A DNA stretch of 21,959 bases, from IMG/VR virus record IMGVR_UViG_3300045988_117647, positions 1 to 21,959 of that record, one strand, 5' to 3'. A model generated the notes under the pieces. It saw only the letters and a list, made by a program, of their open reading frames with translations. It was not told the DNA's origin and did no database searches. Positions within the stretch are counted from its first letter, which is position 1. Each line of letters opens with the position of its first letter. Shown piece by piece: positions 1 through 17,684 of the stretch. The position numbers and the translations under genes are program-made. This DNA comes from a virus (lineage: Duplodnaviria > Heunggongvirae > Uroviricota > Caudoviricetes).

Positions 1-54
1 GTCATCGGGCATTATCTGAACATAAAACACTATCAATAAGTTGGAGTCATTACC
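1..54 (+). mobile_element. 3' terminal 54 bp of an IS1 element: end of insB (stop TAA at 36-38) plus right inverted repeat (about 32-54, reverse complement GGTAATGACTCCAACTTATTGAT); the rest of the element lies upstream of the window
   Basis: Sequence 1-54 (GTCATCGGGCATTATCTGAACATAAAACACTATCAATAAGTTGGAGTCATTACC) matches the IS1 terminus as I remember it, including the characteristic terminal GGTAATGACTCCAAC read on the complementary strand. Recalled, not searched. Confidence 0.8.
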
Positions 55-198
55 TACAACGGGAAAAAATTTACGTATCCGGTCGCTGATGAGTGGAGTT
101 GGTTTTATTGTTATTCAGAGCAATAAACATCTGATTTAATTTGTTGCATAATAGTAAAATTGCTGTTTATCTACATGTGGTAACTATTGATAATTATG

Positions 199-226
199 TT
201 GCTAATAATGTGTGCAAATTTATACT
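199..226 (+). promoter_or_regulatory. Possible sigma70-like promoter for the island-1 ORF (-35 TTGCTA 199-204, 16-nt spacer, -10 TATACT 221-226)
   Basis: Hexamers read directly; the implied leader to the ATG at 243 is very short and would overlap the AAGGTG RBS, so the call is weak. Read-through from IS1 is an alternative. Confidence 0.2.
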
Positions 227-242
227 GAAAAAGGTGAAAACG

Positions 243-2075
243 ATGAATGATATCTTTGTTCTTACAAGGGAAGAGCTTGAAACACTAGATTATAGTGTTT
301 TTATGCATATACCAGTTACATTTCATGCACATAAAATAAAAAAATATCTGGATGGGATTGCTGAATCATCAGAAAACCCCAAAGAGAAAAAATTAGCATC
401 TCTTTTTGGTATGCTATATAGTTTCAATTTGCAAGTTGTTAACAACACTCCATCATTTGAACCCCAAATGATTTGGGGTAATAAAAGATCAATATTGCCT
501 GAAGATTTTGATGAGCAGGTGAATGATTGTCTTTTATATGTTTCTCAAAAAATAACCAATCCATTTTTGTTATCAAGAATATATGATGTTGTTTGGTGTA
601 ATAATCGGAAAAATAAAGACGTGGCAATTAAAGCAATTGATTCCTATGCTGAAATGCTAAATATAGCAATTGAAAGACTAATAATAAAAAACGAAAGCAT
701 GGATGAAAGTGATTTAAATTGCTTTATTTTTGCTCGTGATTATATTGCTAGGGCTTTGCACATTAATAAAATGGTCTACCCTAGAAAATCAGAAGGAAAC
801 ATGGCGATTAAAAATGCCATTCATTCTCTTTATAGTATTCAAAATGAAAGATTAATCTTTGAAGGTTTCAATAATTTGACTTGGTTTATGGTGCGTGATT
901 TTGATGGGGATAATCTGCAGTATGCGGAAAATGCTGAGAAGATGGCTGAGCAGCATAAAGATAAAAAATATTATGATGCTGTAAAATCACTTTATATGAC
1001 AAGTGCAGTTATTTATGAAAAAAATGGTGAGTCTGAACGTGCCAAGAGATGTAAACTGGCATCTGCAAATATTACTATTAAAGTTGCAACAGATCGACCT
1101 GATAATATGGGTAAGATCTCTTGGTTAAGAACAGCTATCTCTGAATTAAGACAGTACGGTGGTGATAGCCAACAGATAGAAGATTTAAAGGAACAACTTG
1201 CTAATTTGAGAGAAGAAGTAAGGAGTGAATATGTCACTTTAAGCCATTCTATTGATATTAGTGACTTGGTTGCTGAAAGTGAAAAAAAACTGACGGGGCG
1301 TTCTTTGCCCGATATATTCAAAGTTTTAATGCGTGAAACACCGATTGAAAATATTGAAAGCATGAGGGAGCAAGTTTTAAGATTATCAGAAAAAAGTTTA
1401 TTCTCTAGTTTTGTTGGAACAGAAATTAATGATGAGAGTGGGCGTAAGGTATATACAATCCCGCCGTTGGATAATAAAAAAGATATGAGTGATGATGTTG
1501 TTATTGATCAATATCTAAGAAATTTCGAGATTACTCATAAGATTTTTGTAAACGGTGTCTTTGAACCTGCTCGCTATGTACTTTCTCAAGAACATGGCTT
1601 GACGTTGTCAACATTCGTTAAATTAGTTACAACTAGTCCAATTGTCAAGCCGGAGTTTAGGGAGATTTTTAATTTGGGCTTTTACAAATTATGGCAGGGA
1701 GATTACATCAGTGCAGCTTATCTTTTAATACCACAAATGGAAGGTATGGTTCGTTATTATTATGAGCTTAGTGGAAAGGATGCTACTAGATATTTGGATA
1801 AGGGATTAGAGGAGTCAACAAGTATTTCTCAGCTTCTAGATAAATGCAGAGATGATTTGGAAAGTATCTTTTCTAAGAATCTTGTTTTAACTATCGATGT
1901 TCTTTTTAATAGAAAGAGTGGGGCAACCTTAAGACATAAATTAGCACATGGTAATTTATATACTAATGCTTGTTACGATGAAACAACGACATATGCATGC
2001 ATCCTGATTTTCTTTCTGTGTGCTTATCCTCTCCTACCATATTTTGATACTGTATTTGAACAGGGCTCTGTTTGA
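243..2075 (+). CDS. Hypothetical 611-aa AT-rich cargo protein; candidate anti-phage or abortive-infection protein with C-terminal R-x4-H-G (HEPN-like) motif RHKLAHG at nt 1932-1952
   Basis: Long uninterrupted ORF (track 141-2075) in visibly AT-rich DNA. I take the ATG at 243 (MNDIFVL...), preceded by AAGGTG at 231-236, as the start. No Walker A/B or TOPRIM motif seen, so it is not an Old-type ATPase. Position is the old/tin locus of P2. Confidence 0.8.
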   Translation: MNDIFVLTREELETLDYSVFMHIPVTFHAHKIKKYLDGIAESSENPKEKKLASLFGMLYSFNLQVVNNTPSFEPQMIWGNKRSILPEDFDEQVNDCLLYVSQKITNPFLLSRIYDVVWCNNRKNKDVAIKAIDSYAEMLNIAIERLIIKNESMDESDLNCFIFARDYIARALHINKMVYPRKSEGNMAIKNAIHSLYSIQNERLIFEGFNNLTWFMVRDFDGDNLQYAENAEKMAEQHKDKKYYDAVKSLYMTSAVIYEKNGESERAKRCKLASANITIKVATDRPDNMGKISWLRTAISELRQYGGDSQQIEDLKEQLANLREEVRSEYVTLSHSIDISDLVAESEKKLTGRSLPDIFKVLMRETPIENIESMREQVLRLSEKSLFSSFVGTEINDESGRKVYTIPPLDNKKDMSDDVVIDQYLRNFEITHKIFVNGVFEPARYVLSQEHGLTLSTFVKLVTTSPIVKPEFREIFNLGFYKLWQGDYISAAYLLIPQMEGMVRYYYELSGKDATRYLDKGLEESTSISQLLDKCRDDLESIFSKNLVLTIDVLFNRKSGATLRHKLAHGNLYTNACYDETTTYACILIFFLCAYPLLPYFDTVFEQGSV

Positions 2076-2226
2076 TAACGTATACGTTGAGGCATAAAAC
2101 CTATGCATACTTAGCTGCATCAATTTGCACGAGGTATTTCAGTATGCATTTTCTGCGTAATAGTAGGGATTGCTTGGTTTGGTAGTTGTAATTCAACTGC
2201 ATTCAAACCGACCCATGAAGCGGGCG

Positions 2227-2245
2227 GGCGAGGCGGGGAAAGCAC
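2227..2245. other. cos: P2-type cohesive end site (cos), 19 nt GGCGAGGCGGGGAAAGCAC
   Basis: Exact match to the P2 19-nt cohesive-end sequence as I recall it; located immediately beyond the 3' end of portal gene Q, as at the P2 genome left end. Confidence 0.7.
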
Positions 2246-2388
2246 TGCGCGCTGGCGGTGGTGCTGATTTTATTTTTTCAGCGTCTGAGCGCGTCGTGAT
2301 GACGTTTAGTCGGCCTGCCGGGGCGTTGGTGTGTCTGCGGGGGTGTTTTGTACAGTGGCGAACGTGTGAGGGCGTGATGACGGGGTGT

Positions 2389-2410
2389 AAAAAAGCCGCC
2401 CGCAGGCGGC
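2389..2410 (-). terminator. Rho-independent terminator after the Q-P leftward operon
   Basis: On the minus strand a GC-rich hairpin GCCGCC-n4-GGCGGC is followed by TTTTTT, starting 6 nt after the Q stop codon. Confidence 0.6.
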
Positions 2411-2415
2411 GATGT

Positions 2416-3450
2416 TCAGCCGTTGTCTGTGTCCAGTGAGTAGTTTTTAAAGCGGATGACCTCCTGACCGAGCCAGCCGTTTATTTCCCGAATCCTGTCC
2501 TGTAGCGGGATAAGCTCATTGCGGACAAAGACCTTTGCCACTTTCTCAATATCACCCAACGACCCGACGTTCTCCGGCTTGCCGCCCATCAACTGAAAGG
2601 GGATGCGGTGCGCGTCCAGCAGGTCAGCGGCGCTGGCTTTTTTGATATTAAAAAAATCGTCCTTCGTCGCCACTTCACTGAGGGGGATAATTTTAATGCC
2701 GTCGGCTTTCCCCTGCGGGGCATAGAGAAACAGGTTTTTAAAGTTATTGCGGCCTTTCGACTTAACCATGTTTTCGCGAAGCATTTCGATATCGTTGCGA
2801 TCCTGCACGGCATCGGTGACGTACATGATGTATCCGGCATGTGCGCCGTTTTCGTAATACTTGCGGCGAAACAGCGTGGCCGACTCATTCAGCCAGGCAG
2901 AATTAAGGGCGCTGAGATATTCCGGCAGGCCGTACAGCTCCTGATTAATATCCGGCTCCAGCAGGTGAAACACGGAGCCGGGCGTGAAGGCTGTCGGCTC
3001 GTTGAAGGACGGCACCCACCAGTAAACATCCTCTTCCACACCACGGCGGGTATATTTTGCCGGTGAGGTTTCCAGTCTGATGACCTTACCGGTGGTGCTG
3101 TATCGCTTTTCCAGAAACGCATTACCGAACACCAGAAAATCCAGCACAAAGCGGCTGAAATCCTGTTGCGAAAGCCACGGGTGCGGGATAAACGTTGAAG
3201 CCAGAATATTGCGTTTGACGTAAATCGGTGAGCTGTGATGCACGGCAGCACGCAGGCTTTTTGCCAGACCGGTAAAGCTGACCGGTGGCTCATACCATCT
3301 GCCGTTACTGATACACTCGACGTAATCCAGAATGTCACGGCGGTCGAGTACCGGCACCGGCTCACCAAAGGTGAATGCCTCCATTTTCGGGGCGCTGGCG
3401 GTCATTGTTTTTGCCGCAGGTTGCGGTGTTTTCCCTTTTTTCTTGCTCAT
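2416..3450 (-). CDS. Q: Portal protein (P2 gpQ-like), 344 aa
   Basis: ORF length and N-terminus MSKKKGKTPQP match P2 Q; synteny with P; start ATG overlaps P stop (ATGA). Confidence 0.9.
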   Translation of the reverse strand: MSKKKGKTPQPAAKTMTASAPKMEAFTFGEPVPVLDRRDILDYVECISNGRWYEPPVSFTGLAKSLRAAVHHSSPIYVKRNILASTFIPHPWLSQQDFSRFVLDFLVFGNAFLEKRYSTTGKVIRLETSPAKYTRRGVEEDVYWWVPSFNEPTAFTPGSVFHLLEPDINQELYGLPEYLSALNSAWLNESATLFRRKYYENGAHAGYIMYVTDAVQDRNDIEMLRENMVKSKGRNNFKNLFLYAPQGKADGIKIIPLSEVATKDDFFNIKKASAADLLDAHRIPFQLMGGKPENVGSLGDIEKVAKVFVRNELIPLQDRIREINGWLGQEVIRFKNYSLDTDNG

Positions 3451-5222
3451 CAGTAAAACTCCAGAATGGTGGATGTCAGCGGGGTGCTGATACCGGCGGT
3501 GAGTGGCTCATTTAACAGGGCGTGCATGGTCGCCCAGGCGAGGTCGGCGTGGCTGGCTTCCTCGCTGCGGCTGGCCTCATAGGTGGCGCTGCGTCCGCTG
3601 CTGGTCATGGTCTTGCGGATAGCCATAAACGAGCTGGTGATGTCGGTGGCGCTGACGTCGTATTCCAGACAGCCACGGCGGATAACGTCTTTTGCCTTGA
3701 GCACCATTGCGGTTTTCATTTCCGGCGTGTAGCGGATATCACGCGCGGCGGGATAGAACGAGCGCACGAGCTGGAACACGCCGACACCGAGGCCGGTGGC
3801 ATCAATTCCGATGTATTCGACGTTGTATTTTCCGGTGAGTTTGCGGATGGATTCAGCCTGGGTGGCAAAGTCCATGCCTTTCCACTGGTGACGCTCAAGT
3901 ATTCTGAATTTGCCACCGGCCACCACCGGCGGTGCCAGTACCACGCATCCGGCGCTGTCGCCACGGTGTGACGGGTCGTAACCAATCCATACCGGGCGGG
4001 AGCCGAACGGATTTGCGGCAAACGGCGCATAGTCTTCCCATTCTTCCAGCGTGTCGACCATGCAGCGTTGCAGCTCCTCGAACGGGAACACCGACGCCTT
4101 GTCGTCAACAAATTCACACATGAACAGGTTTTTAAAATCGTCGGCGCTGTTTTCGCGTTTAAGCTGCTCAATGTCGAACAATGTGCAGCCGCCTTTCAGG
4201 GCGTCCTCAATGGTGACAATCTGCCGCCACTGGCCGTCCGCACAGAGAAGCCCACCGGCAAGGGCGTTATGACTGACGTCGATTTCCACGCGTTCGGCGG
4301 CGCTGGCGCGTCCCCGGTTGAACAGTTCACCCGACCAGAACGGGTAGGCGTCGTGCGCCAGCGTGGACGGGGTGGAGAAATAGGTCGATCGCAGGTGACT
4401 CTGTGAGGCCATACCTGATGCCACCTTACGCAGCACCTGAAAATTCGGGATCCAGAAAATCTCGTCGACGTACAGGTCGCCGTTATGGCTCTGCGCGGTG
4501 TTGGAGTTGGTGCCGAGAAAAATCAGTTTTGCGCCGCTATTGCCCAGGACAATCGGGTCACCGGTCAGGTCAACGTCAACCAGCCGGGCAAAGGCGATGA
4601 TGTATTCGCGGAACACATACGCCTGCGTTTTACTGGCCGACAGAAAAATCTGGTTATGACCGGTTTTCAGGGCGCGCAGCAGCGCCTCGCGGGAAAAATA
4701 AAACGTCGCGCCAATCTGGCGGGATTTCAGGATATCGCGGATGCGGTGCTCAAGCCCGGCGCGATACCAGTGCAACTGATAATCGAAAGACTGCTCAAAG
4801 AAAATCTGCTCCAGCTTTTCGATGGCCTCGTCACTGAAAAAATTCTTTTTCGGTTTGCGCCGCCCGCCTTTGTTGCGGTTAGCGACGTTCGGATTAAGGT
4901 CTGCCTCGTTGCCGGTCTGGCTGTAGCGGTTGACCCGTGCCAGTCGTTCAATCTGGCGTCCCAGCAGGTCAATTTCCTTGAAGTCACCGCCGGTTTTCTG
5001 CGGTTTGATGATGAGCTGGGTCAGCCGCGCTTCCAGACTCATTTCGACACGGCTGATGGGGGCAACGCTGTCCCAGCCGTCGCGCTGTTTCCAGCTCTGC
5101 ACCGTCGGGCGTTTCATCTGCAACATGGCGGCAATCTGCGGCACGGAAACCCCCTGCCAGTACAGCAGCGCCGCCTGACGACGCGGGTCGTGTAAAAGAG
5201 TGGTGTCTGTGGTGATGGTCAT
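3450..5222 (-). CDS. P: Terminase large subunit (P2 gpP-like), 590 aa
   Basis: ORF track 3450-5252; start taken at the ATG at 5222 (MTITTDTTLLHD...) which has a GAGGT RBS and gives the P2 P length; upstream extension has no RBS. Confidence 0.9.
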   Translation of the reverse strand: MTITTDTTLLHDPRRQAALLYWQGVSVPQIAAMLQMKRPTVQSWKQRDGWDSVAPISRVEMSLEARLTQLIIKPQKTGGDFKEIDLLGRQIERLARVNRYSQTGNEADLNPNVANRNKGGRRKPKKNFFSDEAIEKLEQIFFEQSFDYQLHWYRAGLEHRIRDILKSRQIGATFYFSREALLRALKTGHNQIFLSASKTQAYVFREYIIAFARLVDVDLTGDPIVLGNSGAKLIFLGTNSNTAQSHNGDLYVDEIFWIPNFQVLRKVASGMASQSHLRSTYFSTPSTLAHDAYPFWSGELFNRGRASAAERVEIDVSHNALAGGLLCADGQWRQIVTIEDALKGGCTLFDIEQLKRENSADDFKNLFMCEFVDDKASVFPFEELQRCMVDTLEEWEDYAPFAANPFGSRPVWIGYDPSHRGDSAGCVVLAPPVVAGGKFRILERHQWKGMDFATQAESIRKLTGKYNVEYIGIDATGLGVGVFQLVRSFYPAARDIRYTPEMKTAMVLKAKDVIRRGCLEYDVSATDITSSFMAIRKTMTSSGRSATYEASRSEEASHADLAWATMHALLNEPLTAGISTPLTSTILEFY

Positions 5223-5395
5223 GAATACCTCGCCGTGATGAATACACGGCAAGGCTACTGAGTCGCGCCCCGCGATTCGCTAAGGTGCTGTTGTGTCAGT
5301 GATAAGCCATCCGGGACTGATGGCGGAGGATGCGTATCGTCGGGAAACTGATGCCGACATGTGACTCCTCTAATCACTATTCAGGACTCCTGACA
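5223..5395. promoter_or_regulatory. Divergent intergenic region between P and O, expected site of the Ogr-dependent late promoters for both operons
   Basis: Position by synteny with P2. I could not find an exact TGT-N12-ACA element by eye, so only the region is called. Confidence 0.35.
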
Positions 5396-6250
5396 ATGGC
5401 AAAAAAAGTCTCAAAATTCTTTCGTATCGGCGTTGAGGGTGACACCTGTGACGGGCGTGTCATCAGTGCGCAGGATATTCAGGAAATGGCCGAAACCTTT
5501 GACCCGCGAGTCTATGGTTGCCGCATTAACCTGGAACATCTGCGCGGCATCCTGCCTGACGGTATTTTTAAGCGTTATGGCGATGTGGTCGAACTGAAGG
5601 CCGAAAAGATTGACGATGATTCGGCGCTGAAAGGCAAATGGGCGCTGTTTGCGAAAATCACCCCGACCGATGACCTTATCGCGATGAACAAGGCCGCGCA
5701 GAAGGTCTATACCTCAATGGAAATTCAGCCGAACTTTGCCAACACCGGCAAATGTTATCTGGTGGGGCTGGCCGTCACCGATGACCCGGCAAGCCTCGGC
5801 ACGGAATACCTGGAATTCTGCCGCACGGCAAAACACAACCCCCTGAACCGCTTCAAATTAAGCCCTGAAAACCTGATTTCAGTGGCAACGCCCGTTGAGC
5901 TGGAATTTGAAGACCTGCCTGAAACCGTGTTCACCGCCCTGACCGAAAAGGTGAAATCCATTTTTGGCCGCAAACAGGCCAGCGATGACGCCCGTCTGAA
6001 TGACGTGCATGAAGCGGTGACCGCTGTCGCTGAGCATGTGCAGGAAAAACTGAGCGCCACTGAGCAGCGCCTTGCTGAGATGGAAACCGCCTTTTCCGCA
6101 CTTAAGCAGGATGTGACTGACAGGGCGGATGAAACCAGTCAGGCATTCACCCGCCTGAAAAACAGTCTCGACCACACCGAAAGTCTGACCCAGCAGCGCC
6201 GCAGCAAAGCCACCGGCGGTGGCGGTGACGCCCTGATGACGAACTGCTGA
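5396..6250 (+). CDS. O: Capsid scaffolding protein (P2 gpO-like), 284 aa
   Basis: ORF track 5330-6250; start at ATG 5396 (MAKKVSKFF) with AGGA RBS; length and order match P2 O. Confidence 0.85.
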   Translation: MAKKVSKFFRIGVEGDTCDGRVISAQDIQEMAETFDPRVYGCRINLEHLRGILPDGIFKRYGDVVELKAEKIDDDSALKGKWALFAKITPTDDLIAMNKAAQKVYTSMEIQPNFANTGKCYLVGLAVTDDPASLGTEYLEFCRTAKHNPLNRFKLSPENLISVATPVELEFEDLPETVFTALTEKVKSIFGRKQASDDARLNDVHEAVTAVAEHVQEKLSATEQRLAEMETAFSALKQDVTDRADETSQAFTRLKNSLDHTESLTQQRRSKATGGGGDALMTNC

Positions 6251-6308
6251 CCGGCGTCAGTCAGTCCGGGAAAACCTTCACGATTAACCCTTAATTTCAG
6301 GAAAAACT

Positions 6309-7382
6309 ATGCGCCAGGAAACCCGCTTTAAATTTAATGCCTACCTGTCCCGTGTTGCCGAACTGAACGGCATCGACGCCGGTGATGTGTCGAAAAAATT
6401 CACCGTTGAACCGTCGGTCACCCAGACCCTGATGAACACCATGCAGGAGTCCTCTGACTTTCTGACCCGCATCAACATTGTGCCGGTCAGCGAAATGAAA
6501 GGGGAAAAAATTGGTATTGGTGTCACCGGCTCCATCGCCAGCACCACCGACACCGCCGGTGGCACCGAGCGTCAGCCGAAGGACTTCTCGAAGCTGGCGT
6601 CAAACAAGTACGAATGCGACCAGATTAACTTCGATTTTTATATCCGCTACAAAACGCTGGACCTGTGGGCGCGTTATCAGGATTTCCAGCTCCGTATCCG
6701 TAACGCCATTATCAAACGCCAGTCCCTTGATTTCATCATGGCCGGTTTTAACGGCGTGAAGCGTGCCGAAACCTCTGACCGCAGCAGCAATCCGATGCTG
6801 CAGGATGTGGCGGTCGGCTGGCTGCAGAAATACCGCAATGAAGCCCCGGCGCGCGTGATGAGCAAGGTCACTGACGAGGAAGGGCACACCACCTCTGAGG
6901 TCATCCGCGTGGGTAAGGGCGGTGATTATGCCAGCCTTGACGCACTGGTGATGGATGCGACCAACAACCTGATTGAGCCGTGGTATCAGGAAGACCCTGA
7001 CCTTGTGGTGATTGTGGGACGTCAGCTACTGGCGGACAAGTATTTTCCCATCGTCAACAAGGAGCAGGACAACAGCGAAATGCTGGCCGCTGACGTCATC
7101 ATCAGCCAGAAACGCATCGGCAACCTGCCAGCGGTACGCGTCCCGTACTTCCCGGCGGATGCGATGCTCATCACGAAGCTGGAAAACCTGTCCATCTACT
7201 ACATGGATGACAGCCATCGCCGCGTGATTGAGGAAAACCCGAAACTTGACCGCGTGGAGAACTACGAGTCAATGAACATTGATTACGTGGTGGAGGACTA
7301 CGCCGCCGGTTGTCTGGTGGAAAAAATTAAGGTCGGTGATTTCTCCACACCGGCTAAAGCGACCGCAGAGCCGGGAGCGTAA
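6309..7382 (+). CDS. N: Major capsid protein (P2 gpN-like), 357 aa
   Basis: ORF length and position match P2 N; N-terminus MRQETRFKFNAYL. Confidence 0.9.
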   Translation: MRQETRFKFNAYLSRVAELNGIDAGDVSKKFTVEPSVTQTLMNTMQESSDFLTRINIVPVSEMKGEKIGIGVTGSIASTTDTAGGTERQPKDFSKLASNKYECDQINFDFYIRYKTLDLWARYQDFQLRIRNAIIKRQSLDFIMAGFNGVKRAETSDRSSNPMLQDVAVGWLQKYRNEAPARVMSKVTDEEGHTTSEVIRVGKGGDYASLDALVMDATNNLIEPWYQEDPDLVVIVGRQLLADKYFPIVNKEQDNSEMLAADVIISQKRIGNLPAVRVPYFPADAMLITKLENLSIYYMDDSHRRVIEENPKLDRVENYESMNIDYVVEDYAAGCLVEKIKVGDFSTPAKATAEPGA

Positions 7383-7385
7383 CCG

Positions 7386-8129
7386 ATGACGAGTCCCGCA
7401 CAGCGCCACATGATGCGGGTCTCGGCAGCGATGACCGCGCAGCGGGAAGCCGCCCCGCTGCGACATGCAACTGTCTATGAGCAGATGCTGGTCAAGCTGG
7501 CCGCAGACCAGCGCACACTGAAAGCGATTTATTCAAAAGAGCTGAAGGCCGCGAAAAAACGCGAACTGCTGCCGTTCTGGTTGCCGTGGGTGAATGGCGT
7601 GCTGGAGCAGGGCAAAGGTGCACAGGATGACATTCTGATGACGGTCATGCTGTGGCGTCTGGATACCGGCGATATTGCCGGTGCGCTGGAGATTGCCCGT
7701 TATGCCCTGAAGTACGGTCTGACCATGCCGGGTAAACACCGCCGCCCCCCGCCGTACATGTTCACCGAGGAGGTGGCGCTCGCGGCCATGCGTGCTCACG
7801 CTGCCGGTGAGTCTGTGGATACCCGCCTGCTGACGGACACCCTTGAACTGACTGCCACGGCTGACATGCCTGATGAAGTGCGCGCAAAGCTGCACAAAAT
7901 CACCGGTCTGTTTCTGCGTGACGCTGGTGATGCCGCCGGTGCGCTGGCTCACCTGCAACGTGCGACACAGCTCGACTGTCAGGCAGGCGTCAAAAAAGAG
8001 ATTGAACGACTGGAGCGGGAGCTGAAACCGAAGCCGGAGCCGCAGCCAAAAGCGGCCACCCGTACCCCGCGTAAGACCCGGAGCGTGACACCGGCAAAAC
8101 GTGGACGCCCGAAAAAGAAAGCCAGTTAA
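7386..8129 (+). CDS. M: Terminase small subunit (P2 gpM-like), 247 aa
   Basis: Length and synteny; basic, Lys/Arg/Pro-rich C-terminus. Confidence 0.85.
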   Translation: MTSPAQRHMMRVSAAMTAQREAAPLRHATVYEQMLVKLAADQRTLKAIYSKELKAAKKRELLPFWLPWVNGVLEQGKGAQDDILMTVMLWRLDTGDIAGALEIARYALKYGLTMPGKHRRPPPYMFTEEVALAAMRAHAAGESVDTRLLTDTLELTATADMPDEVRAKLHKITGLFLRDAGDAAGALAHLQRATQLDCQAGVKKEIERLERELKPKPEPQPKAATRTPRKTRSVTPAKRGRPKKKAS

Positions 8130-8228
8130 CAACCGAATGCGCCCCGCGCCAGGGCGGCACGCCGGTCAGTGAGGGTGAATTACCTGACATTGCACCGGCG
8201 TCCACCGCCCGACTTTTCAGAGGTAGTC

Positions 8229-8738
8229 ATGATGACGCTGATTATTCCGCGAAAGGAGGCTCCCGTGTCCGGTGAGGGTACGGTGGTTATCCCGCAACCG
8301 GCAGGCGACGAGCCGGTGATTAAAAACACGTTCTTTTTTCCCGATATCGACCCGAAGCGCGTCCGGGAACGTATGCGCCTTGAGCAGACCGTCGCCCCCG
8401 CCCGTCTGCGTGAGGCCATCAAGTCAGGCATGGCGGAGACGAATGCGGAGCTGTACGAGTACCGCGAACAGAAAATTGCCGCCGGTTTTACGCGTCTGGC
8501 GGACGTCCCGGCGGACGACATCGACGGTGAAAGCATCAAAGTTTTTTACTACGAGCGCGCCGTGTGTGCGATGGCGACCGCGTCGCTTTATGAGCGTTAT
8601 CGCGGCGTGGATGCCAGTGCGAAAGGTGACAAGAAGGCTGACAGCATTGACAGCACCATTGATGAACTGTGGCGGGATATGCGCTGGGCGGTGGCGCGTA
8701 TCCAGGACAAGCCGCGCTGCATCGTGAGTCAAATCTGA
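8229..8738 (+). CDS. L: Head completion/stabilisation protein (P2 gpL-like), 169 aa
   Basis: ORF track 8169-8738; start at ATG 8229 (MMTLIIPRKE) with GAGGT RBS gives the P2 L length. Confidence 0.8.
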   Translation: MMTLIIPRKEAPVSGEGTVVIPQPAGDEPVIKNTFFFPDIDPKRVRERMRLEQTVAPARLREAIKSGMAETNAELYEYREQKIAAGFTRLADVPADDIDGESIKVFYYERAVCAMATASLYERYRGVDASAKGDKKADSIDSTIDELWRDMRWAVARIQDKPRCIVSQI

Positions 8739-8941
8739 TGAAGACCTTTGCGCTACAGGGCGACACGCTCGACGCCATTTGTGTCCGGTATTACGGGCGC
8801 ACTGAGGGCGTGGTTGAGACCGTGCTCGTCGCAAATCCGGGACTGGCTGAACTGGGTGCGGTGCTGCCACACGGCACCGCCGTCGAACTGCCCGACGTTC
8901 AGACCGCGCCCGTGGCTGAAACTGTCAATCTGTGGGAGTAA
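8738..8941 (+). CDS. X: Tail protein X (P2 gpX-like), 67 aa
   Basis: ATG at 8738 overlaps the L stop (TGATG); 67-aa product MKTFALQGDTLD... in the position of P2 X. Confidence 0.8.
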   Translation: MKTFALQGDTLDAICVRYYGRTEGVVETVLVANPGLAELGAVLPHGTAVELPDVQTAPVAETVNLWE

Positions 8942-8944
8942 CGC

Positions 8945-9226
8945 ATGACAGCAGAAGAAAAAAGCGTCCTGTCGCTTTTCATGATTGGGGTGCTGATTGT
9001 TGTCGGCAAGGTGCTTGCCGGTGGTGAACCCATCACCCCGCGTCTGTTTATCGGGCGCATGTTGCTCGGTGGTTTTGTCTCGATGGTTGCCGGTGTTGTT
9101 CTGGTGCAGTTTCCTGACCTGTCACTGCCTGCGGTGTGCGGCATCGGCTCCATGCTGGGTATCGCCGGTTATCAGGTGATTGAGATTGCCATTCAGCGCC
9201 GTTTTAAGGGCAGGGGGAAACCGTAA
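8945..9226 (+). CDS. Y: Holin (P2 gpY-like), 93 aa
   Basis: 93 aa with hydrophobic transmembrane segments and a basic C-terminus (RRFKGRGKP); first gene of the lysis cassette. Confidence 0.8.
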   Translation: MTAEEKSVLSLFMIGVLIVVGKVLAGGEPITPRLFIGRMLLGGFVSMVAGVVLVQFPDLSLPAVCGIGSMLGIAGYQVIEIAIQRRFKGRGKP

Positions 9227-9723
9227 TGCCGGTAATTAACACGCATCAGAATATCGCCGCCTTTCTCGACATGCTGGCCGTGTCCGAAGGGACGGCGAAT
9301 CATCCGCTGACGAAAAACTGTGGCTATGACGTGATAGTCACCGGACTGGACGGGAAGCCGGAAATCTTCACCGACTACAGTGACCACCCGTTCGCGCATG
9401 GCCGACCGGCGAAGGTGTTTAACCGTCGCGGTGAAAAATCCACGGCCTCCGGTCGCTATCAGCAGCTTTACCTGTTCTGGCCGCATTACCGCAAACAGCT
9501 TGCCCTGCCGGATTTCAGTCCGTTGTCACAGGACAGACTCGCCATTCAGTTGATCCGCGAACGCGGTGCGCTGGATGACATCCGGGCGGGACGCATTGAG
9601 CGCGCCATTTCACGCTGTCGCAATATCTGGGCGTCCCTGCCGGGTGCCGGTTACGGTCAGCGTGAGCATTCACTGGAAAAACTGGTCACCGTCTGGCGTA
9701 CCGCTGGCGGCGTACCGGCTTAA
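9226..9723 (+). CDS. K: Endolysin, lysozyme-like (P2 gpK-like), 165 aa
   Basis: Length and position match P2 K; start overlaps Y stop (TAATG). Confidence 0.85.
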   Translation: MPVINTHQNIAAFLDMLAVSEGTANHPLTKNCGYDVIVTGLDGKPEIFTDYSDHPFAHGRPAKVFNRRGEKSTASGRYQQLYLFWPHYRKQLALPDFSPLSQDRLAIQLIRERGALDDIRAGRIERAISRCRNIWASLPGAGYGQREHSLEKLVTVWRTAGGVPA

Positions 9724-9737
9724 ACGGAGTAAACACC

Positions 9738-10163
9738 ATGAAGAAATTATCCCTTTCACTGATGCTGAACGTGTCGCTGGCGCTGATGCTGGCACTGTCC
9801 CTGATTTACCCGCAGAGCGTGGCCGTCAGTTTTGTCGCCACCTGGGCGATTCTGGCGACGGTTATCTGTGTGGTTGCCGGTGGTGTCGGCGTGTATGCCA
9901 CTGAGTATGTGCTGGAACGCTACGGGCGGGAGCTGCCGCCGGAATCGCTGGCCGTGAAGATTGTCACGCCGCTGTTTTTGCAGCCGGTGCCGTGGCGCAG
10001 ACGGGCGGTGGCTCTGGTGGTGATGGTGGCGACGTTTATCTCGCTGGTTGCCGCCGGGTGGATTTTTACTGCACTGATTTATCTCGTGGCGTCGCTGTTT
10101 TTCCGGCTGATACGTAAAGCCTGTCGTCAGCGTCTTGAGGGGCGGGAACTATGTCAAAGCTGA
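9738..10163 (+). CDS. lysA: LysA-like membrane protein (lysis timing), 141 aa
   Basis: 141 aa, strongly hydrophobic with several predicted transmembrane segments; follows K as in P2. Confidence 0.75.
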   Translation: MKKLSLSLMLNVSLALMLALSLIYPQSVAVSFVATWAILATVICVVAGGVGVYATEYVLERYGRELPPESLAVKIVTPLFLQPVPWRRRAVALVVMVATFISLVAAGWIFTALIYLVASLFFRLIRKACRQRLEGRELCQS

Positions 10164-10576
10164 TGATTGTGATGGTTGTGCTGTTATCGCTGGCGGTAGC
10201 GGCGCTGTTTCTGGCGAAGCATGAAAACGCCAGCCTGCGCACCTCACTGGACAGGGCGAGCAACGTCGCCAACGGGCAGCAGACGACCATCACCATGCTG
10301 AAAAATCAGCTTCATGTTGCCCTCACCAGGGCAGACAAAAACGAGCTGGCGCAGGTGGCACTGCGTCAGGAACTGGAAAACGCCGCGAAGCGTGAAGCAC
10401 AGCGCGAGAAAGCCATCACGAGGTTACTGAATGAAAACGAAGATTTTCGCCGCTGGTATGGCGCTGACCTGCCTGATGCTGTGCGCCGGTTGCACCAGCG
10501 CCCCGCCTGCACCGACGCCAGTGATTGTCCACAACGCCTGCCCGAAAGTGAGCCTTTGCCCGATGCCGGGCAGTGA
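10151..10576 (+). CDS. lysB: LysB, Rz-like inner-membrane spanin, 141 aa
   Basis: N-terminal transmembrane segment (LMIVMVVLLSLAVAALFLA) followed by a charged helical region; overlaps lysA end; contains lysC in another frame. Confidence 0.75.
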   Translation: MSKLMIVMVVLLSLAVAALFLAKHENASLRTSLDRASNVANGQQTTITMLKNQLHVALTRADKNELAQVALRQELENAAKREAQREKAITRLLNENEDFRRWYGADLPDAVRRLHQRPACTDASDCPQRLPESEPLPDAGQ

Positions 10577-10721
10577 CCCGCAGACGAACGGCGATTTAAG
10601 TGCCGATATCCGGCAGCTTGAGAACGCGCTGGCACGCTGTGCCAGCCAGGTAAAAATGATTAAACACTGTCAGGACGAAAACGATGCTCAAACCCGACAG
10701 CCTGCGCAGGGCACTGACTGA
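10431..10721 (+). CDS. lysC: LysC, Rz1-like outer-membrane lipoprotein spanin, 96 aa
   Basis: Starts inside lysB in a different frame; signal peptide with lipobox LCAGC; Pro-rich mature part; GAGG RBS. Confidence 0.7.
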   Translation: MKTKIFAAGMALTCLMLCAGCTSAPPAPTPVIVHNACPKVSLCPMPGSDPQTNGDLSADIRQLENALARCASQVKMIKHCQDENDAQTRQPAQGTD

Positions 10722-11151
10722 TGCCGTCACGGTGCTGAAAACCAGCCCCGAGATGCTGCGGATATTCGTGGATAACGGGAGTATTGCCTCCACACTGGCG
10801 ACGTCGCTGTCATTCGAAAAGCGTTACACGCTCAATGTCATTGTGACCGATTTTACCGGTGATTTTGACCTGCTCATCGTGCCGGTGCTGGCGTGGCTGC
10901 GGGAAAATCAGCCCGACATCATGACCACCGACGAAGGCCAGAAAAAGGGCTTCACGTTTTATGCAGACATCAACAATGACAGCAGCTTTGATATCAGCAT
11001 CAGCCTGATGCTGACCGAGCGCACGCTGGTCAGTGAGGTTGACGGCGCACTGCATGTGAAGAATATCCCGGAACCTCCGCCGCCGGAGCCGGTCACCCGC
11101 CCGATGGAGCTTTATATCAATGGCGAACTGGTGAGCAAGTGGGATGAATGA
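10684..11151 (+). CDS. R: Tail completion protein (P2 gpR-like), 155 aa
   Basis: Length and synteny with P2 R. Confidence 0.8.
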   Translation: MLKPDSLRRALTDAVTVLKTSPEMLRIFVDNGSIASTLATSLSFEKRYTLNVIVTDFTGDFDLLIVPVLAWLRENQPDIMTTDEGQKKGFTFYADINNDSSFDISISLMLTERTLVSEVDGALHVKNIPEPPPPEPVTRPMELYINGELVSKWDE

Positions 11152-11596
11152 GTTTAAGCGTTTTGAAGACCGGCTGACCGGACTTATTGAGTCGCTGTCA
11201 CCGTCAGGGCGTCGGCGACTGAGTGCCGAACTGGCAAAACGTCTGCGACAGAGTCAGCAGCGTCGGGTGATGGCACAGAAAGCCCCGGACGGCACACCCT
11301 ACGCGCCACGCCAGCAGCAGAGCGCCAGAAAAAAGACTGGTCGTGTTAAGCGAAAAATGTTTGCGAAACTTATCACCAGTCGTTTTTTGCATATCCGCGC
11401 CAGCCCGGAACAGGCATCAATGGAATTTTACGGCGGGAAGTCACCGAAAATCGCCAGCGTGCATCAGTTCGGTCTGTCGGAAGAAAACCGGAAAGACGGT
11501 AAGAAAATTGATTATCCGGCGCGTCCTCTGCTCGGCTTTACCGGTGAGGATGTGCAGATGATTGAAGAGATTATTCTGGCTCACCTCGACCGTTAG
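11144..11596 (+). CDS. S: Tail completion protein (P2 gpS-like), 150 aa
   Basis: Length and synteny with P2 S; overlaps R end. Confidence 0.8.
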   Translation: MNEFKRFEDRLTGLIESLSPSGRRRLSAELAKRLRQSQQRRVMAQKAPDGTPYAPRQQQSARKKTGRVKRKMFAKLITSRFLHIRASPEQASMEFYGGKSPKIASVHQFGLSEENRKDGKKIDYPARPLLGFTGEDVQMIEEIILAHLDR

Positions 11597-11628
11597 TTGT
11601 GCCATTCCCGACACCTCATCGTCACATT

Positions 11629-11650
11629 GCCGCCGGTATGACCCGGCGGC
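11629..11650 (+). other. GC-rich hairpin (GCCGCCGG-n6-CCGGCGGC) in the S-V intergenic region, which by synteny also holds the late promoter for V
   Basis: 8-bp perfect stem read directly; followed by a partly T-rich stretch. Function as terminator or attenuator not established. Confidence 0.3.
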
Positions 11651-11662
11651 ATCCTTCCCGTT

Positions 11663-12298
11663 ATGAACACTCTCGCAAATATTCAGGAACTCGCGCGCGC
11701 ACTGCGCAACATGATCCGCACCGGCATTATCGTTGAAACCGACCTTAACGCCGGTCGCTGCCGTGTGCAGACTGGTGGCATGTGCACTGACTGGCTTAAG
11801 TGGCTGACCCATCGCGCCGGGCGTTCGCGCACATGGTGGGCACCTTCCGTGGGGGAACAGGTGCTGATTCTGGCCGTGGGCGGTGAACTCGACACGGCGT
11901 TCGTTCTGCCGGGGATTTATTCCGGCGATAACCCCGCGCCGTCTGCGTCGGCGGATGCCCTGCATATCCGTTTCCCTGACGGGGCGGTGATTGAATATGA
12001 ACCTGAAACCAGTGCACTCACGGTAAGCGGAATTAAAACGGCCAGCGTGATGGCTTCTGATTCTGTTACTGCCACGGTGCCGGTGGTCACGGTGAAAGCA
12101 TCAACCTGCGTCACCCTGGACACACCGGAAGTGGTCTGCACCAACAAACTGACTACCGGCACGCTGGAAGTGCAGAAGGGCGGGACGATGCGCGGCAACA
12201 TCGCGCATACCGGCGGTGAACTCTCATCAAACGGTAAGGTACTGCATACCCATAAACACCCCGGCGACAGCGGCGGCACAACAGGGGGACCTCTATGA
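11663..12298 (+). CDS. V: Baseplate spike/hub protein (P2 gpV-like), 211 aa
   Basis: Length and synteny with P2 V. Confidence 0.85.
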   Translation: MNTLANIQELARALRNMIRTGIIVETDLNAGRCRVQTGGMCTDWLKWLTHRAGRSRTWWAPSVGEQVLILAVGGELDTAFVLPGIYSGDNPAPSASADALHIRFPDGAVIEYEPETSALTVSGIKTASVMASDSVTATVPVVTVKASTCVTLDTPEVVCTNKLTTGTLEVQKGGTMRGNIAHTGGELSSNGKVLHTHKHPGDSGGTTGGPL

Positions 12299-12642
12299 CT
12301 GCGCGTTATCTCGGAATGAATCGCAGTGATGGCCTGACTGTCACTGACCTTGAGCATATCAGCCAGAGTATCGGCGATATCCTGCGCACGCCGGTCGGCT
12401 CACGGGTGATGCGTCGTGATTACGGCTCGTTGCTGGCGTCAATGATTGACCAGCCGCAGACCCCGGCGCTTGAGTTGCAGATTAAGGTCGCCTGTTACAT
12501 GGCTGTGCTGAAATGGGAACCCCGCGTCACCCTGTCATCCGTCACCACTGAGCGCAGTTTTGACGGGCGAATGACTGTCACTTTGACCGGCCAGCACAAC
12601 GACACCGGCCAGCCACTTTCGTTAACCATCCCTGTGAGTTGA
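12295..12642 (+). CDS. W: Baseplate wedge protein (P2 gpW-like), 115 aa
   Basis: Length and synteny; start overlaps V stop (ATGA). Confidence 0.85.
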   Translation: MTARYLGMNRSDGLTVTDLEHISQSIGDILRTPVGSRVMRRDYGSLLASMIDQPQTPALELQIKVACYMAVLKWEPRVTLSSVTTERSFDGRMTVTLTGQHNDTGQPLSLTIPVS

Positions 12643-12646
12643 AACC

Positions 12647-13555
12647 ATGCCGATTATCGACCTGAACCAGCTACCCGCACCGGATGTGGTCGAGGAGCTG
12701 GACTTTGAAACCATTCTTGCCGAACGCAAGGCGACACTGATTTCCCTTTACCCGGAAGACCAGCAGGAGGCGGTCGCCCGTACCCTGACGCTGGAATCTG
12801 AGCCTCTCGTCAAACTGCTGGAGGAAAATGCTTATCGTGAGCTTATCTGGCGTCAGCGTGTGAATGAGGCCGCACGGGCGGTAATGCTGGCCTGTGCCGC
12901 CGGTAATGACCTTGATGTGATTGGTGCCAATTACAACACCACGCGCCTGACTATCACTCCGGCAGATGATTCGACCCTCCCGCCGACACCGGCAGTGATG
13001 GAGTCTGACACCGATTATCGTCTGCGTATTCAGCAGGCTTTTGAGGGCTTAAGCGTCGCCGGGTCAGTGGGAGCTTATCAGTATCATGGTCGCAGTGCCG
13101 ACGGGCGTGTCGCCGATATTTCTGTCACCAGTCCGTCTCCTGCCTGCGTCACCATCTCTGTGCTGTCACGTGAAAATAACGGTGTTGCATCCGAAGACCT
13201 GCTGGCCGTGGTGCGTAACGCCCTTAATGGCGAGGACGTCAGGCCGGTGGCCGACCGCGTGACCGTGCAGTCTGCCGCCATCGTTGAATACCAGATAAAC
13301 GCCACGCTTTACCTTTACCCTGGCCCCGAAAGCGAACCCATCCGCGCTGCCGCCGTGAAAAAACTGGAAGCATACATCACGGCACAGCACCGGCTGGGGC
13401 GCGACATCCGTCTGTCTGCCATTTATGCCGCTTTGCATGTTGAAGGCGTGCAGCGTGTCGAACTGGCTGCACCACTGGCCGACATCGTGCTCAACAATAC
13501 GCAGGCGTCTTTCTGTACCGAATACAGCGTCGTGACCGGAGGCTCGGATGAGTGA
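12647..13555 (+). CDS. J: Baseplate protein (P2 gpJ-like), 302 aa
   Basis: Length and synteny with P2 J. Confidence 0.85.
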   Translation: MPIIDLNQLPAPDVVEELDFETILAERKATLISLYPEDQQEAVARTLTLESEPLVKLLEENAYRELIWRQRVNEAARAVMLACAAGNDLDVIGANYNTTRLTITPADDSTLPPTPAVMESDTDYRLRIQQAFEGLSVAGSVGAYQYHGRSADGRVADISVTSPSPACVTISVLSRENNGVASEDLLAVVRNALNGEDVRPVADRVTVQSAAIVEYQINATLYLYPGPESEPIRAAAVKKLEAYITAQHRLGRDIRLSAIYAALHVEGVQRVELAAPLADIVLNNTQASFCTEYSVVTGGSDE

Positions 13556-14078
13556 TTCGCGACTGCTGCCGACCGGCTCATCACCGCTTGAAGTTGCCGC
13601 CGCAAAAGCCTGTGCGGAAATTGAAAAAACGCCGGTCAGTATTCGTGAGCTGTGGAACCAGGATACCTGTCCGGCAAATCTGCTGCCGTGGCTGGCGTGG
13701 GCGTTTTCGGTCGACAGGTGGGATGAGAAGTGGCCGGAAGCGACAAAACGCGCCGTTATCCGCGATGCGTATTTCATCCACTGTCATAAAGGCACTATAG
13801 GTGCAATCCGGCGTGTGGTGGAGCCGCTCGGCTATCTCATCAACGTGACGGAGTGGTGGGAAAATAGTGACCCGCCCGGCACCTTCCGGCTTGATATTGG
13901 TGTACTGGAAAGTGGCATCACAGAGGCAATGTATCAGGAAATGGAACGGCTGATTGCTGATGCCAAACCTGCAAGCCGTCACCTTATTGGCCTGAACATT
14001 ACCCAGGACATTCCCGGCTACCTGTTCGCCGGTGGTGTGGCTTACGACGGCGATGTAATTACGGTTTACCCCGGATAA
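13548..14078 (+). CDS. I: Baseplate protein (P2 gpI-like), 176 aa
   Basis: Length and synteny with P2 I; overlaps J end. Confidence 0.85.
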   Translation: MSDSRLLPTGSSPLEVAAAKACAEIEKTPVSIRELWNQDTCPANLLPWLAWAFSVDRWDEKWPEATKRAVIRDAYFIHCHKGTIGAIRRVVEPLGYLINVTEWWENSDPPGTFRLDIGVLESGITEAMYQEMERLIADAKPASRHLIGLNITQDIPGYLFAGGVAYDGDVITVYPG

Positions 14079-14088
14079 GTGAGGAATA

Positions 14089-15954: not shown

Positions 15955-15957
15955 TTT

Positions 15958-16485
15958 ATGCAGCATTTAAAAAATATTACGGCGGGTAATCCAAAAACGG
16001 TTGAACAATATCAATTGACAAAGGGCTTTGATGTTGTCTGGTTTTTTACAGAAGATGGTAAGAACTGGTACGAAGAACAAAAGTATTTTGCTGATGACAC
16101 GATAAAAATAGCGTACGACAAAGATAATATCATCCGCTATGTGGAAAAGGATGTGACAGCTATCAGACCGGATGGATTAAGTGTGGTTGAAGTGGCGGAT
16201 ATTACTGCTAACCGACGTGCGGATATTTCAGGGGGCTGGATGTTTAAGGACGGCAAAGTGATTAAACGCATTTATACGGCAGAGGAATTACAGCAGCAGG
16301 CAGAAATTCGGAAAGCCAGACTTCTTGCAGATGCTGAATCCGTGATTTTGCCGCTGGAGCGCGCGGTCAGACTGAACATGGCAACAGAGGAGGAGCGCAC
16401 ACGGCTGGAGGCTTGGGAACGCTACAGCGTTCTGGTCAGTCGTGTGGATCCTGCAAATCCTGAATGGCCGGAAATGCCGCAATAA
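15958..16485 (+). CDS. G: Tail fibre assembly protein (P2 gpG-like), 175 aa
   Basis: Length and position immediately after H. Confidence 0.8.
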
Positions 16486-16520
16486 GTTGTATGAACTCTG
16501 GTGTGAGCTTACATATCTAT

Positions 16521-16560
16521 GGCACAGAGTAAAGCCTAATCTGACAGTCCGCTCTGTGCC
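16521..16560. repeat. Inverted repeat GGCACAGAG-n22-CTCTGTGCC at the boundary between G and AT-rich island 2
   Basis: Perfect 9-bp arms read directly; no T-run follows on either strand, so it is not called a terminator. Confidence 0.4.
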
Positions 16561-16738
16561 AAAAGCGGGCGTTGATCACATGGGCTATGCTAACCCATTA
16601 TAACAGTGTAACAGAGCTACCCACGATTACTCCCGGCCTCTAAAGTTTGCTACATAATAAAGAATCATTCCCTTTAATCTGATCTTAGCGGTATAGTATC
16701 TGGTGACCAGTAAGATAATCACCGACACTACAATCATG

Positions 16739-16766: not shown

Positions 16767-16815
16767 TGTGGTGCGAAAAGACCAATGAAAGTTATTGATA
16801 ATAAGGAGGAATCAA

Positions 16816-17598: not shown

Positions 17599-17684
17599 CT
17601 TTTCTATTTAGTAGTTAAATGATAGTGCATTACGAGCCAATTAAATTTAATTCTATGGTTGTGTAGACAATAAAAGGTAACTAG

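Follow-up and report, generated by a model that had tools for sequence, protein, structure and literature searches.

The window (the whole stretch of DNA analyzed, 21,959 nucleotides) begins with the right end of an IS1 element (positions 1-54, plus strand), inserted in the 3′ end of gpA. At least 5000 plasmid records contain an IS1A/IS1B end that matches these positions with 100% identity. Of the 5426 E. coli genomes searched, 4962 have multiple copies of the IS1 end, and none has the junction between IS1 and gpA. Next to it lie the last 72 nt of gpA, which encodes the P2-type replication endonuclease (55-126, plus strand, stop codon at 124-126), as the left conserved flank of the hotspot. 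The matching region is annotated as 'replication endonuclease' in 55 E. coli genomes, and gpA of E. coli S88 ends 72 nt into the match. Since the gpA 3′ end directly adjoins the IS1 end, IS1 cuts gpA. The original prediction placed a cargo island between the IS1 end and cos; the island is there, but the gpA remnant separates it from IS1. We note that the prophage is damaged not only in gpA: a frameshift also disrupts its second cargo gene, which lies at the Z/fun site.

The island has a GC content of 33%, compared with 53.5% in the rest of the window (0.331 for positions 127-2184, 0.332 for the coding sequence, and 0.535 for the remaining window). The drop relative to the flanking phage genes, predicted from the outset, is seen in all 300-nt windows, with values of 0.29-0.36 throughout up to ~2100 and 0.52-0.61 beyond. 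The AT-rich intergenic region upstream of the cargo gene (127-242, plus strand) presumably carries the gene's own promoter and a ribosome-binding site (AAAGGTG, ~229-235), as judged from reading the sequence. Promoter-like hexamers are located at 124-152 and 199-226; a promoter scan of the upstream region found 12 candidates compared with 9.4 ± 2.8 in shuffled sequences, which is the chance level. An Rfam scan of positions 1-2600 gave no match near threshold.

On the right, a spacer (2076-2226) leads from the stop codon to cos, and similarity to other P2-like phages resumes at ~2184-2228. On this side, the hotspot is bounded by the conserved cos cohesive-end sequence GGCGAGGCGGGGAAAGCAC (2227-2245). 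Window position 2227-2228 is exactly where several linear P2-like phage records begin, and the P2 hotspot is directly adjacent to cos according to Rousset et al. 2022 (PMC9122126). The conserved right neighbor is the portal gene Q (2416-3450, minus strand), assigned from the ORF list and from comparison with genomes and phage records; a terminator-like hairpin (2410-2395, minus strand) follows its stop codon. An ORF at 2170-2439 was rejected as a gene, as it lies in the GC-rich flank across the cos cut site and is annotated by only one phage record. The cos/portal flank is common to 83 phage records, only one of which has the cargo gene, in line with the variability predicted for this locus. 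In E. coli, 55 of 5426 genomes have the gene in this interval, with gpA on one side and the portal gene on the other, and P2/186-like prophages from Klebsiella, Kosakonia and a metagenome have homologues with 53-64% identity in the equivalent position. As had been proposed, the island corresponds to the old/tin hotspot (gpA-cos-gpQ) of a P2-like prophage, whose cargo slot here holds one horizontally acquired gene.

The cargo gene (243-2075, plus strand) encodes a 610-aa protein with DUF7380 and DUF4209 (HEPN) domains. The ORF list gives 141-2075 from a TTG codon; translation from ATG 243 yields 610 aa plus a stop codon. The single long ORF thus stands as predicted, but the length of 611 given for it counts codons. 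ATG 243, 188 nt downstream of IS1, is the start in RefSeq, the N-termini of 19 homologues align there, and a Shine-Dalgarno sequence (AAAGGTG) lies 7-8 nt upstream.

The N-terminal part, which the original prediction did not recognize, is the Pfam domain DUF7380 (PF24098; aa 4-184, positions 252-794, plus strand; E 2.4e-39). Its score of 135.4 bits passes the cut-off of 27, the domain is found in 52 of 52 distant relatives, and it contains the conserved residues R82, D88, R112, D115, W118, Y135 and R170. We propose that DUF7380 may be a sensor or regulatory module. It is followed by a central alpha-helical region of TPR-like repeats (approximately aa 125-325, positions 615-1217, plus strand), whose boundaries are approximate and which overlaps the end of DUF7380. 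The C-terminal domain is of the HEPN type (approximately aa 470-605, positions 1650-2057, plus strand). Within it, the match to Pfam DUF4209 (PF13910) spans aa 524-590 and scores 19.5 bits, below the gathering threshold of 22.3 (E 0.0011), and 39 of 52 distant relatives match DUF4209 at E ≤ 1e-3, the best at 7.7e-13.

HEPN active sites are defined by an Rx4-6H motif with a typically polar residue (N, D, H) after the arginine and by a second conserved acidic residue upstream, typically within an Ex3[KR] motif (PMC3710099). The window protein fits this definition exactly: E500-x3-R504 (E-G-M-V-R, positions 1740-1754, plus strand) is the upstream acidic motif, and R564-H565-K-L-A-H569-G570 (positions 1932-1952, plus strand) is the Rx4H motif, so that the original reading of RHKLAHG as a HEPN motif holds. 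Among 134 distant relatives, only E500, R564 and H569 reach 100% conservation, followed by R504 (99%), G570 (96%) and H565 (78%). E500 and R504 are invariant in alignment A2, a sample of proteins 20-38% identical to the window protein, and the Rx4H motif from R564 to G570 is invariant in alignments A1 and A2. The domain has the all-alpha helical-bundle fold of HEPN proteins, and the model places the hydrophobic final helix (aa 580-604) within the bundle. A Foldseek search with one domain of the protein gave no PDB match below E 1.5, and a sequence/profile search of the PDB returned only coiled-coil noise (E ≥ 0.36). We also considered an Old homologue and rejected it, in agreement with the original prediction: there is no ATPase or TOPRIM match in Pfam or PADLOC at E ≤ 1, and therefore the protein is not Old. 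The product is a three-part all-alpha protein, consisting of DUF7380, TPR-like repeats and a HEPN domain of the DUF4209/C6orf70 family.

This system is already known, and its locus, gene, HEPN assignment and status as a defence candidate are all published. The claim that it was undescribed therefore falls: both domains are in Pfam, the gene is system #13 of the P2 hotspot survey, labelled "DUF4209" (Table S5B) with 193 occurrences (PMC9122126), and the copy of E. coli S88 has been cloned. A PADLOC search, suggested earlier as a check, gave a full-length match to both profiles of the known candidate PDC-S39: aa 40-598 align with positions 44-583 of the 595 in the first (E 4.7e-85), and the second gave E 3.3e-84. 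In RefSeq the protein is a 'DUF7380 domain-containing protein', in PHROGs it matches only a family of 'unknown function', and no NCBIfam family was matched; a phage copy with 99% identity is annotated as a DUF4209 protein. An exhaustive protein search found 3362 clusters (at 50% identity) at E ≤ 1e-3, conserved over the full length; a profile re-search of a word-indexed protein database gave no further relatives. The family spans many bacterial phyla, and eukaryotic DUF4209 relatives exist. DUF4209 is the C6orf70 HEPN family (Anantharaman et al. 2013, PMC3710099), and both features of the 2013 description, fusion to TPR-type repeats and occurrence in operons related to restriction-modification (RM), are found, the repeats in the window protein and the operons at loci of distant relatives. 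DefensePredictor counts the DUF4209 proteins of E. coli among its predicted novel defence genes, and papers mentioning PDC-S39 list only its detection. Literature searches for DUF7380, WP_000997854, ERMARD with HEPN, and P2-EC46 returned nothing, and no demonstrated phenotype or RNase activity of any family member was found in the literature searched.

The S88 copy (WP_000997854.1) was cloned as "Putative HEPN" in pFR103, a pSC101 plasmid, with its native upstream region and in MG1655 as the host, and was challenged with lambda, T4, P1, 186cIts, CLB_P2, LF82_P8, AL505_P2 and T7 (PMC9122126). After this eight-phage challenge it was grouped with the 'additional tested systems' and not with the validated ones (PMC9122126). 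The pFR103 fragment begins 13 nt upstream of the equivalent of window position 55 and includes the equivalent of 127-242. Cloning and plaque assays had been proposed as a check of the original prediction; with pFR103, which carries the native upstream region, most of this experiment has been done. The result bears on the possibility that the gene confers no resistance, but it covers eight phages only. No positive report of anti-phage protection by this system was found in the literature searched. There is little that is new in the window, and a single published attempt at the obvious experiment gave no phenotype.

The S88 and window alleles share 99.5% DNA identity and 605 of 610 aa. Five of the nine nucleotide differences in the coding sequence are non-synonymous (window to S88: E44G, R145K, D223Y, S264Y and D410N), all at positions variable in the family. 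The tested S88 allele is neither unusual nor defective: it is identical to the representative of an 810-sequence cluster and differs from the window protein only at such variable columns. The absence of a reported phenotype for the S88 copy, the five non-synonymous differences and the damage to the prophage could indicate a passenger, either an RNA-binding or scaffold HEPN similar to MtlR or a silenced gene drifting in a defective prophage. We consider this very unlikely: the ORF is intact in the window and in all 55 E. coli genomes carrying the gene, the substitutions avoid conserved positions, and all 134 sequences that sample the divergence of the 3362 clusters keep the catalytic E, R and H, whereas non-catalytic HEPNs typically lose Rx4-6H (PMC3710099).

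Gene neighborhoods were compared at 80 loci of distant relatives, sampled with alignment A3, as A2 was too variable. No conserved partner gene was found across the 80 loci, and a two-gene toxin-antitoxin system was rejected on this basis. The nearest large neighbors include IetS, LmuB, SduA, a CBASS cyclase, SoFic, AriA, NsnB and DUF4238. At 10 of the 80 loci, type I RM genes are found no more than 6 kb away. The gene directly follows hsdS at loci L084 and L087, where hsdR lies downstream (at a distance of 4.6 kb in L087), and at locus L045 it directly follows hsdR. These arrangements, together with the RM-related operons noted in the 2013 survey, recall PrrC, a HEPN anticodon nuclease that is regulated by such a complex (PMC3710099). 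The protein might likewise be kept inactive by the Hsd proteins of a type I RM complex and become active once an anti-restriction protein of a phage inactivates them; a guard encoded by P2 would depend on the hsd genes of the host chromosome. We give this reading little credence, as RM genes are absent nearby in 70 of the 80 loci and at all P2/186-type loci, and the protein has no ABC-ATPase domain. The negative panel also argues against it, as it included T7 in an MG1655 host. MG1655 has EcoKI, and T7 makes the anti-restriction protein Ocr.

The same neighborhoods bear on whether the protein could be an active HEPN RNase with a role other than defence against other phages, such as a toxin for prophage addiction or stress response, a regulator acting on P2 or host RNA, or a weapon in the contest between P2 and its satellite P4. 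The sole published phage test found no protection, approximately a quarter of P2 hotspots hold non-defence cargo such as partition systems and ~2% hold cdt toxins, and the hotspot adjoins cos, which P2 and P4 have in common (PMC9122126). For eukaryotic DUF4209 proteins, moreover, the predicted role is not immunity but degradation of RNA at the ER (PMC3710099). We nevertheless regard such a role as unlikely, because distant relatives lie beside or inside RM operons and near many different defence genes, no conserved partner resembles an antitoxin, and two independent defence predictors (PADLOC and DefensePredictor) flag the family.

These observations make it on balance probable that the gene is a single-gene abortive-infection system, in which a sensor-coupled HEPN RNase responds to a possibly narrow trigger. 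The original candidate, a single-gene defence or Abi system, survives as a foreign-looking single cargo gene with a HEPN domain, but not as an undescribed one. By analogy with known systems, the protein would be made in the lysogen from its own promoter and kept inactive. The N-terminal and TPR module may sense an infection cue, for example a phage-encoded protein or a host complex that has been lost, upon which two HEPN domains would pair. The composite site of E500, R504, R564 and H569 would then cut RNA (tRNA, rRNA or mRNA) without metal, and the resulting shutdown of translation would abort the infection. We infer the sensor role, dimerization, RNA target and abortive outcome in this scheme. 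Probably only a few triggers are recognized or the native promoter drives little expression; each of these would account for the lack of protection in the published test. Tentatively, we extend this to the bacterial DUF7380-TPR-DUF4209 proteins as a group, which may possibly be narrow-spectrum abortive-infection RNases whose N-terminal module recognizes a phage or satellite factor outside the eight-phage panel.

Compared with known systems, the window protein shares with P2 Old and Tin, which are phage-exclusion cargo, the slot between gpA and cos/gpQ (PMC9122126), but has no sequence or domain relationship to them. The S88 gene in pFR103 is the same gene at the same locus, and the window differs by the five residues and by the upstream IS1. 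PADLOC PDC-S39 is likewise a single-gene system matched over its full length, and is itself a bioinformatic candidate only. ORF612 of P2-EC46 (AM157366.1), which is Rousset system #55 'DUF4209', belongs to the same family, has the same length, occupies the same P2 hotspot and keeps both motifs, but this paralogue is only 33% identical to the window protein and therefore represents a second allele class of the P2 slot, separated from the first by ancient divergence. PrrC and RloC resemble the window protein as single polypeptides with an N-terminal regulatory region and a C-terminal HEPN RNase (predicted here), and PrrC also in its association with type I RM; their fusion of ABC-ATPase and HEPN is missing in the window protein, and most loci of its family lack RM genes. 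With the C6orf70 (ERMARD)/DUF4209 family it shares Rx4H and its polar residue, Ex3R, the TPR-like fusion and the occurrence of family members in RM operons, whereas the description of the eukaryotic members includes a transmembrane segment and places them, by prediction, at the ER, and the window protein has DUF7380 at its N-terminus. The bacterial proteins are prokaryotic relatives of this family, which is as old as LECA. The E. coli prophage copy is a convenient model for them, and, if they are narrow-spectrum abortive-infection RNases, they would give the first experimental handle on the cleavage target and switching of the C6orf70/ERMARD HEPN family.

The AT-rich island between the end of gpA and cos contains a single long open reading frame (243-2075, plus strand), here called the HEPN gene. 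The original prediction described the island and its reading frame essentially correctly, but the encoded protein has 610 residues and not 611. GC content is 0.331 over 127-2184 versus 0.535 for the remaining window. The left edge (1-54) is an IS1 right end (100% identity to IS1A/IS1B ends in thousands of plasmids), present in multiple copies in 4962 of the 5426 complete E. coli genomes. The match to P2-like prophages begins at 55, with the 72-nt 3' end of gpA, the replication endonuclease gene (55-126, stop 124-126). Because IS1 cuts gpA 24 codons (72 nt) ahead of its stop, the prophage is probably replication-defective; a search of the 5426 complete E. coli genomes did not find the IS1/gpA junction in any of them. 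We note that IS1 lies 188 nt 5' of the HEPN gene ATG and could alter expression of this gene. An AT-rich spacer of 116 nt follows the gpA stop, and 151 nt separate the reading frame from P2 cos (GGCGAGGCGGGGAAAGCAC, 2227-2245), where several linear P2-like phage records start exactly. Beyond cos lie two minus-strand genes, portal gene Q (2416-3450) and terminase gene P (3450-5252). The true start is ATG 243, not TTG 141, based on RefSeq annotation, the N-termini of 19 homologues aligned to it, and AAAGGTG upstream. An 89-aa reading frame spanning cos (2170-2439, plus strand) is probably no gene, as it crosses the cos cut site and sits in the conserved GC-rich flank; one phage record has a hypothetical protein annotated at the equivalent place.

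The gpA-cos-gpQ interval is the hotspot that holds old and tin in reference P2 (Rousset et al. 2022, PMC9122126). This HEPN cargo was found in only one of 83 phage records with the common cos/portal flank (vB_EcoM-569R9), indicating that the slot is variable, as had been proposed. Of the 5426 complete E. coli genomes, 55 carry the 2.2-kb segment at 95% identity or more, always on the chromosome and always adjoining gpA, and the gene order in E. coli S88 is int-C-cox-B-...-A-(HEPN gene)-Q-P-O-N. In this slot, P2- or 186-like prophages of Klebsiella, Kosakonia, and a metagenome contig have homologues with 53-64% identity, whose GC content is 34-35% versus 49-52% in the flanks. The slot of ECOR46 holds a 33%-identical paralogue, ORF612 of P2-EC46 (AM157366.1).

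The P2 Z/fun position, which separates the tail sheath gene from the tail-fibre assembly gene, holds a second AT-rich island (16500-18500, GC 0.32-0.38). Two overlapping reading frames (16989-17330 and 17299-17598; probable start ATG 16817) match consecutive positions 74-159 and 172-256 of the 259-position PADLOC PDC-S31 / Pfam DUF2971 profile, and the frame changes beside a C-run at about 17283-17289. They are one candidate defence gene with at least one frameshift. The 161-aa reading frame at 17685-18170 gave no confident family (YunG, 22.5 bits against a cut-off of 27) and no PADLOC match. In the late region (5330-16485, 18614-20667), P2 genes O, N, M, L, the lysis genes, R, S, V, W, J, I, H, G, FI, FII, and E appear uninterrupted and of expected sizes. 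A dip in GC content to 0.42-0.46 at 15000-16500 covers gene G and the C-terminal part of tail fibre gene H, a pattern typical of tail-fibre mosaicism.

The N-terminal region of the window protein, at first not assigned to any family, is Pfam DUF7380 (aa 4-184, E 2.4e-39). DUF4209 is matched at aa 524-590 (E 1.1e-3) with 19.5 bits, just below the 22.3-bit cut-off. Both profiles of PDC-S39, a PADLOC-DB phage defence candidate, are matched end to end (E 4.7e-85 and 3.3e-84), the PHROGs family is phrog_5183 (unknown function), and NCBIfam gave no match. Pfam contains no ATPase or TOPRIM match for the protein, which rules out an Old homologue, consistent with the first assessment. An exhaustive profile search returned 3362 cluster representatives at E <= 1e-3, of which 617 reach 1e-30 or better; almost all of the representatives have 600-640 aa and full-length matches. 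In a sample of 52 sequences with 20-38% identity, all contain DUF7380 and 39 match DUF4209 (best E 7.7e-13), so the weak score of the window protein reflects divergence rather than non-membership. By this comparison, the protein belongs to DUF4209 despite its sub-threshold score.

Anantharaman et al. (2013, PMC3710099) placed DUF4209 in the HEPN superfamily as the 'C6orf70' family, for which they describe descent traced to the last eukaryotic common ancestor, a conserved Rx4-6H, fusion to TPR repeats, and occurrence in R-M related operons. In their definition, the HEPN active site pairs an Rx4-6H whose R is followed by a polar residue (N, D, or H) with an acidic residue further upstream, typically part of Ex3[KR]. 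The window protein contains both elements, R564-H565-x3-H569 and E500-x3-R504. E500, R564, and H569 are the sole residues 100% conserved in 134 full-length representatives, followed by R504 (99%), P497 (98%), and G570 (96%); G400, L495, E500, R504, R564, H569, and G570 are invariant in the 52-sequence sample. The structure prediction list includes SsR10 (6.8), AF0298 HEPN (6.4), AbiA (6.0), TTHA0636 (5.9), HI0074 (5.7), Sacsin HEPN (5.6), HepN toxins (about 5), and LsoA, RnlA, Las1, and AbiV (4.1-4.9). The Rx4H motif lies inside the HEPN-like domain, and the initial HEPN call is correct.

The gene had been predicted to be an undescribed defence system, but it is already catalogued: three resources or more name it as a candidate, and a single published test of the cloned gene gave no phenotype. 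Rousset et al. surveyed 18,150 loci of this hotspot, and their Table S5B lists two 'DUF4209' systems, #13 with 193 occurrences and #55 with 76. The protein of system #13 (start MNDIFVLTREELETLDYSV...) is the window protein, and that of system #55 (start MSEFDVFSISVDD...) is ORF612. Their Table S2B ('additional tested systems') contains pFR103, a one-gene 'Putative HEPN' from locus P2 of E. coli S88, with an insert that begins (GCGACCGTAGATTACAACGGGAAAAAATTTACG...) 13 nt ahead of window position 55. According to their methods, Table S2A holds validated systems and S2B the other tested ones; the main text reports defence from only three of eight additional P2 systems. Plaque assays used an MG1655 host, native promoters, a pSC101 plasmid, and phages lambda, T4, P1, 186cIts, CLB_P2, LF82_P8, AL505_P2, and T7. 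Five of the 610 residues differ between the S88 protein (WP_000997854.1) and the window protein, all at family-variable positions, and the S88 sequence exactly matches that of an 810-sequence cluster's representative, so the tested allele is typical. Among the predicted novel defence genes of DefensePredictor (PMC13092281) are several E. coli 'DUF4209 domain-containing proteins' (mean log-odds 4.3-8.1) with a remote match to the AbiJ C-terminal domain; the covered part of its tested-systems files does not include these proteins. Papers mentioning PDC-S39 report detection only, and our literature search returned no paper demonstrating activity of any family member.

The negative test lowers, but does not remove, the probability of an abortive-infection role, because the panel was small, many validated systems protect against just one or two phages (Rousset et al. 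2022, PMC9122126), and in the text consulted, expression driven by the AT-rich native region is not reported. An RNase whose role is non-defence or anti-satellite is an alternative that we consider rather unlikely.

We fetched 80 loci of distant relatives from Gamma- and Alphaproteobacteria, Chloroflexota, Paenibacillus, Lucifera, Bacteroidota, Verrucomicrobiota, and Turneriella. No neighbour of the HEPN gene is conserved across them, so the gene is a single-gene unit. PADLOC profiles run on the 109 nearest large neighbours matched IetS (E 7e-297), LmuB (1e-194), SduA (1e-139), SoFic (1e-128), a CBASS-type cyclase (2e-119), DUF4238-Pers, NsnB, AriA, PbeA, and several PDC candidates. These surroundings amount to a defence-island setting, which is expected of a PADLOC candidate. 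In a Pseudomonas subgroup, an HTH_3 (Xre-type) protein of 154-158 aa adjoins the HEPN gene, immediately upstream in L018, L021, L022, and L061 (about 5080-5670) and downstream in L023 (10107-10571); it is not present at P2-type loci and may be a clade-specific regulator.

The window gene is an intact, horizontally acquired single gene in a known defence hotspot. Its protein has absolutely conserved HEPN catalytic motifs, a TPR-like middle, and a conserved N-terminal domain, and its distant relatives have defence and RM neighbourhoods. On this basis, we moderately favour a sensor-gated HEPN RNase acting by abortive infection. The DUF7380/TPR N-terminal module would keep the nuclease off until an infection cue is detected, upon which the HEPN domains of two protomers would pair, and the E/R/R/H site would cut RNA metal-free, stopping translation and aborting infection. 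Set against the intact gene and its conserved motifs, a non-catalytic or decaying passenger seems improbable. The HEPN family to which the protein belongs is large and conserved and has eukaryotic relatives.

Type I RM genes (HsdM, HsdS, HsdR; Pfam-confirmed) lie within 6 kb in 10 of the 80 loci, some of which are related MAGs and not independent. The HEPN gene is directly between hsdS and hsdR in L084 (hsdM-hsdS-HEPN gene-hsdR, 3806-10871), directly after hsdR in L045 (hsdM-hsdS-hsdR-HEPN gene, 121-7647), and after hsdS in L087 (2129-13594), where the same strand carries hsdR another 4.6 kb downstream. In L085, hsdM-hsdS lie ~2.5 kb upstream of the HEPN gene, also on its strand. A PrrC-like guard requiring a type I RM partner would fit such loci, and we regard it as a long shot. 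The sensor-gated RNase mechanism is drawn by analogy with PrrC/RloC, RnlA/LsoA, Csm6, and Abi HEPN proteins, and the family members of L084, L087, and L045 resemble PrrC in being within or appended to type I RM operons.
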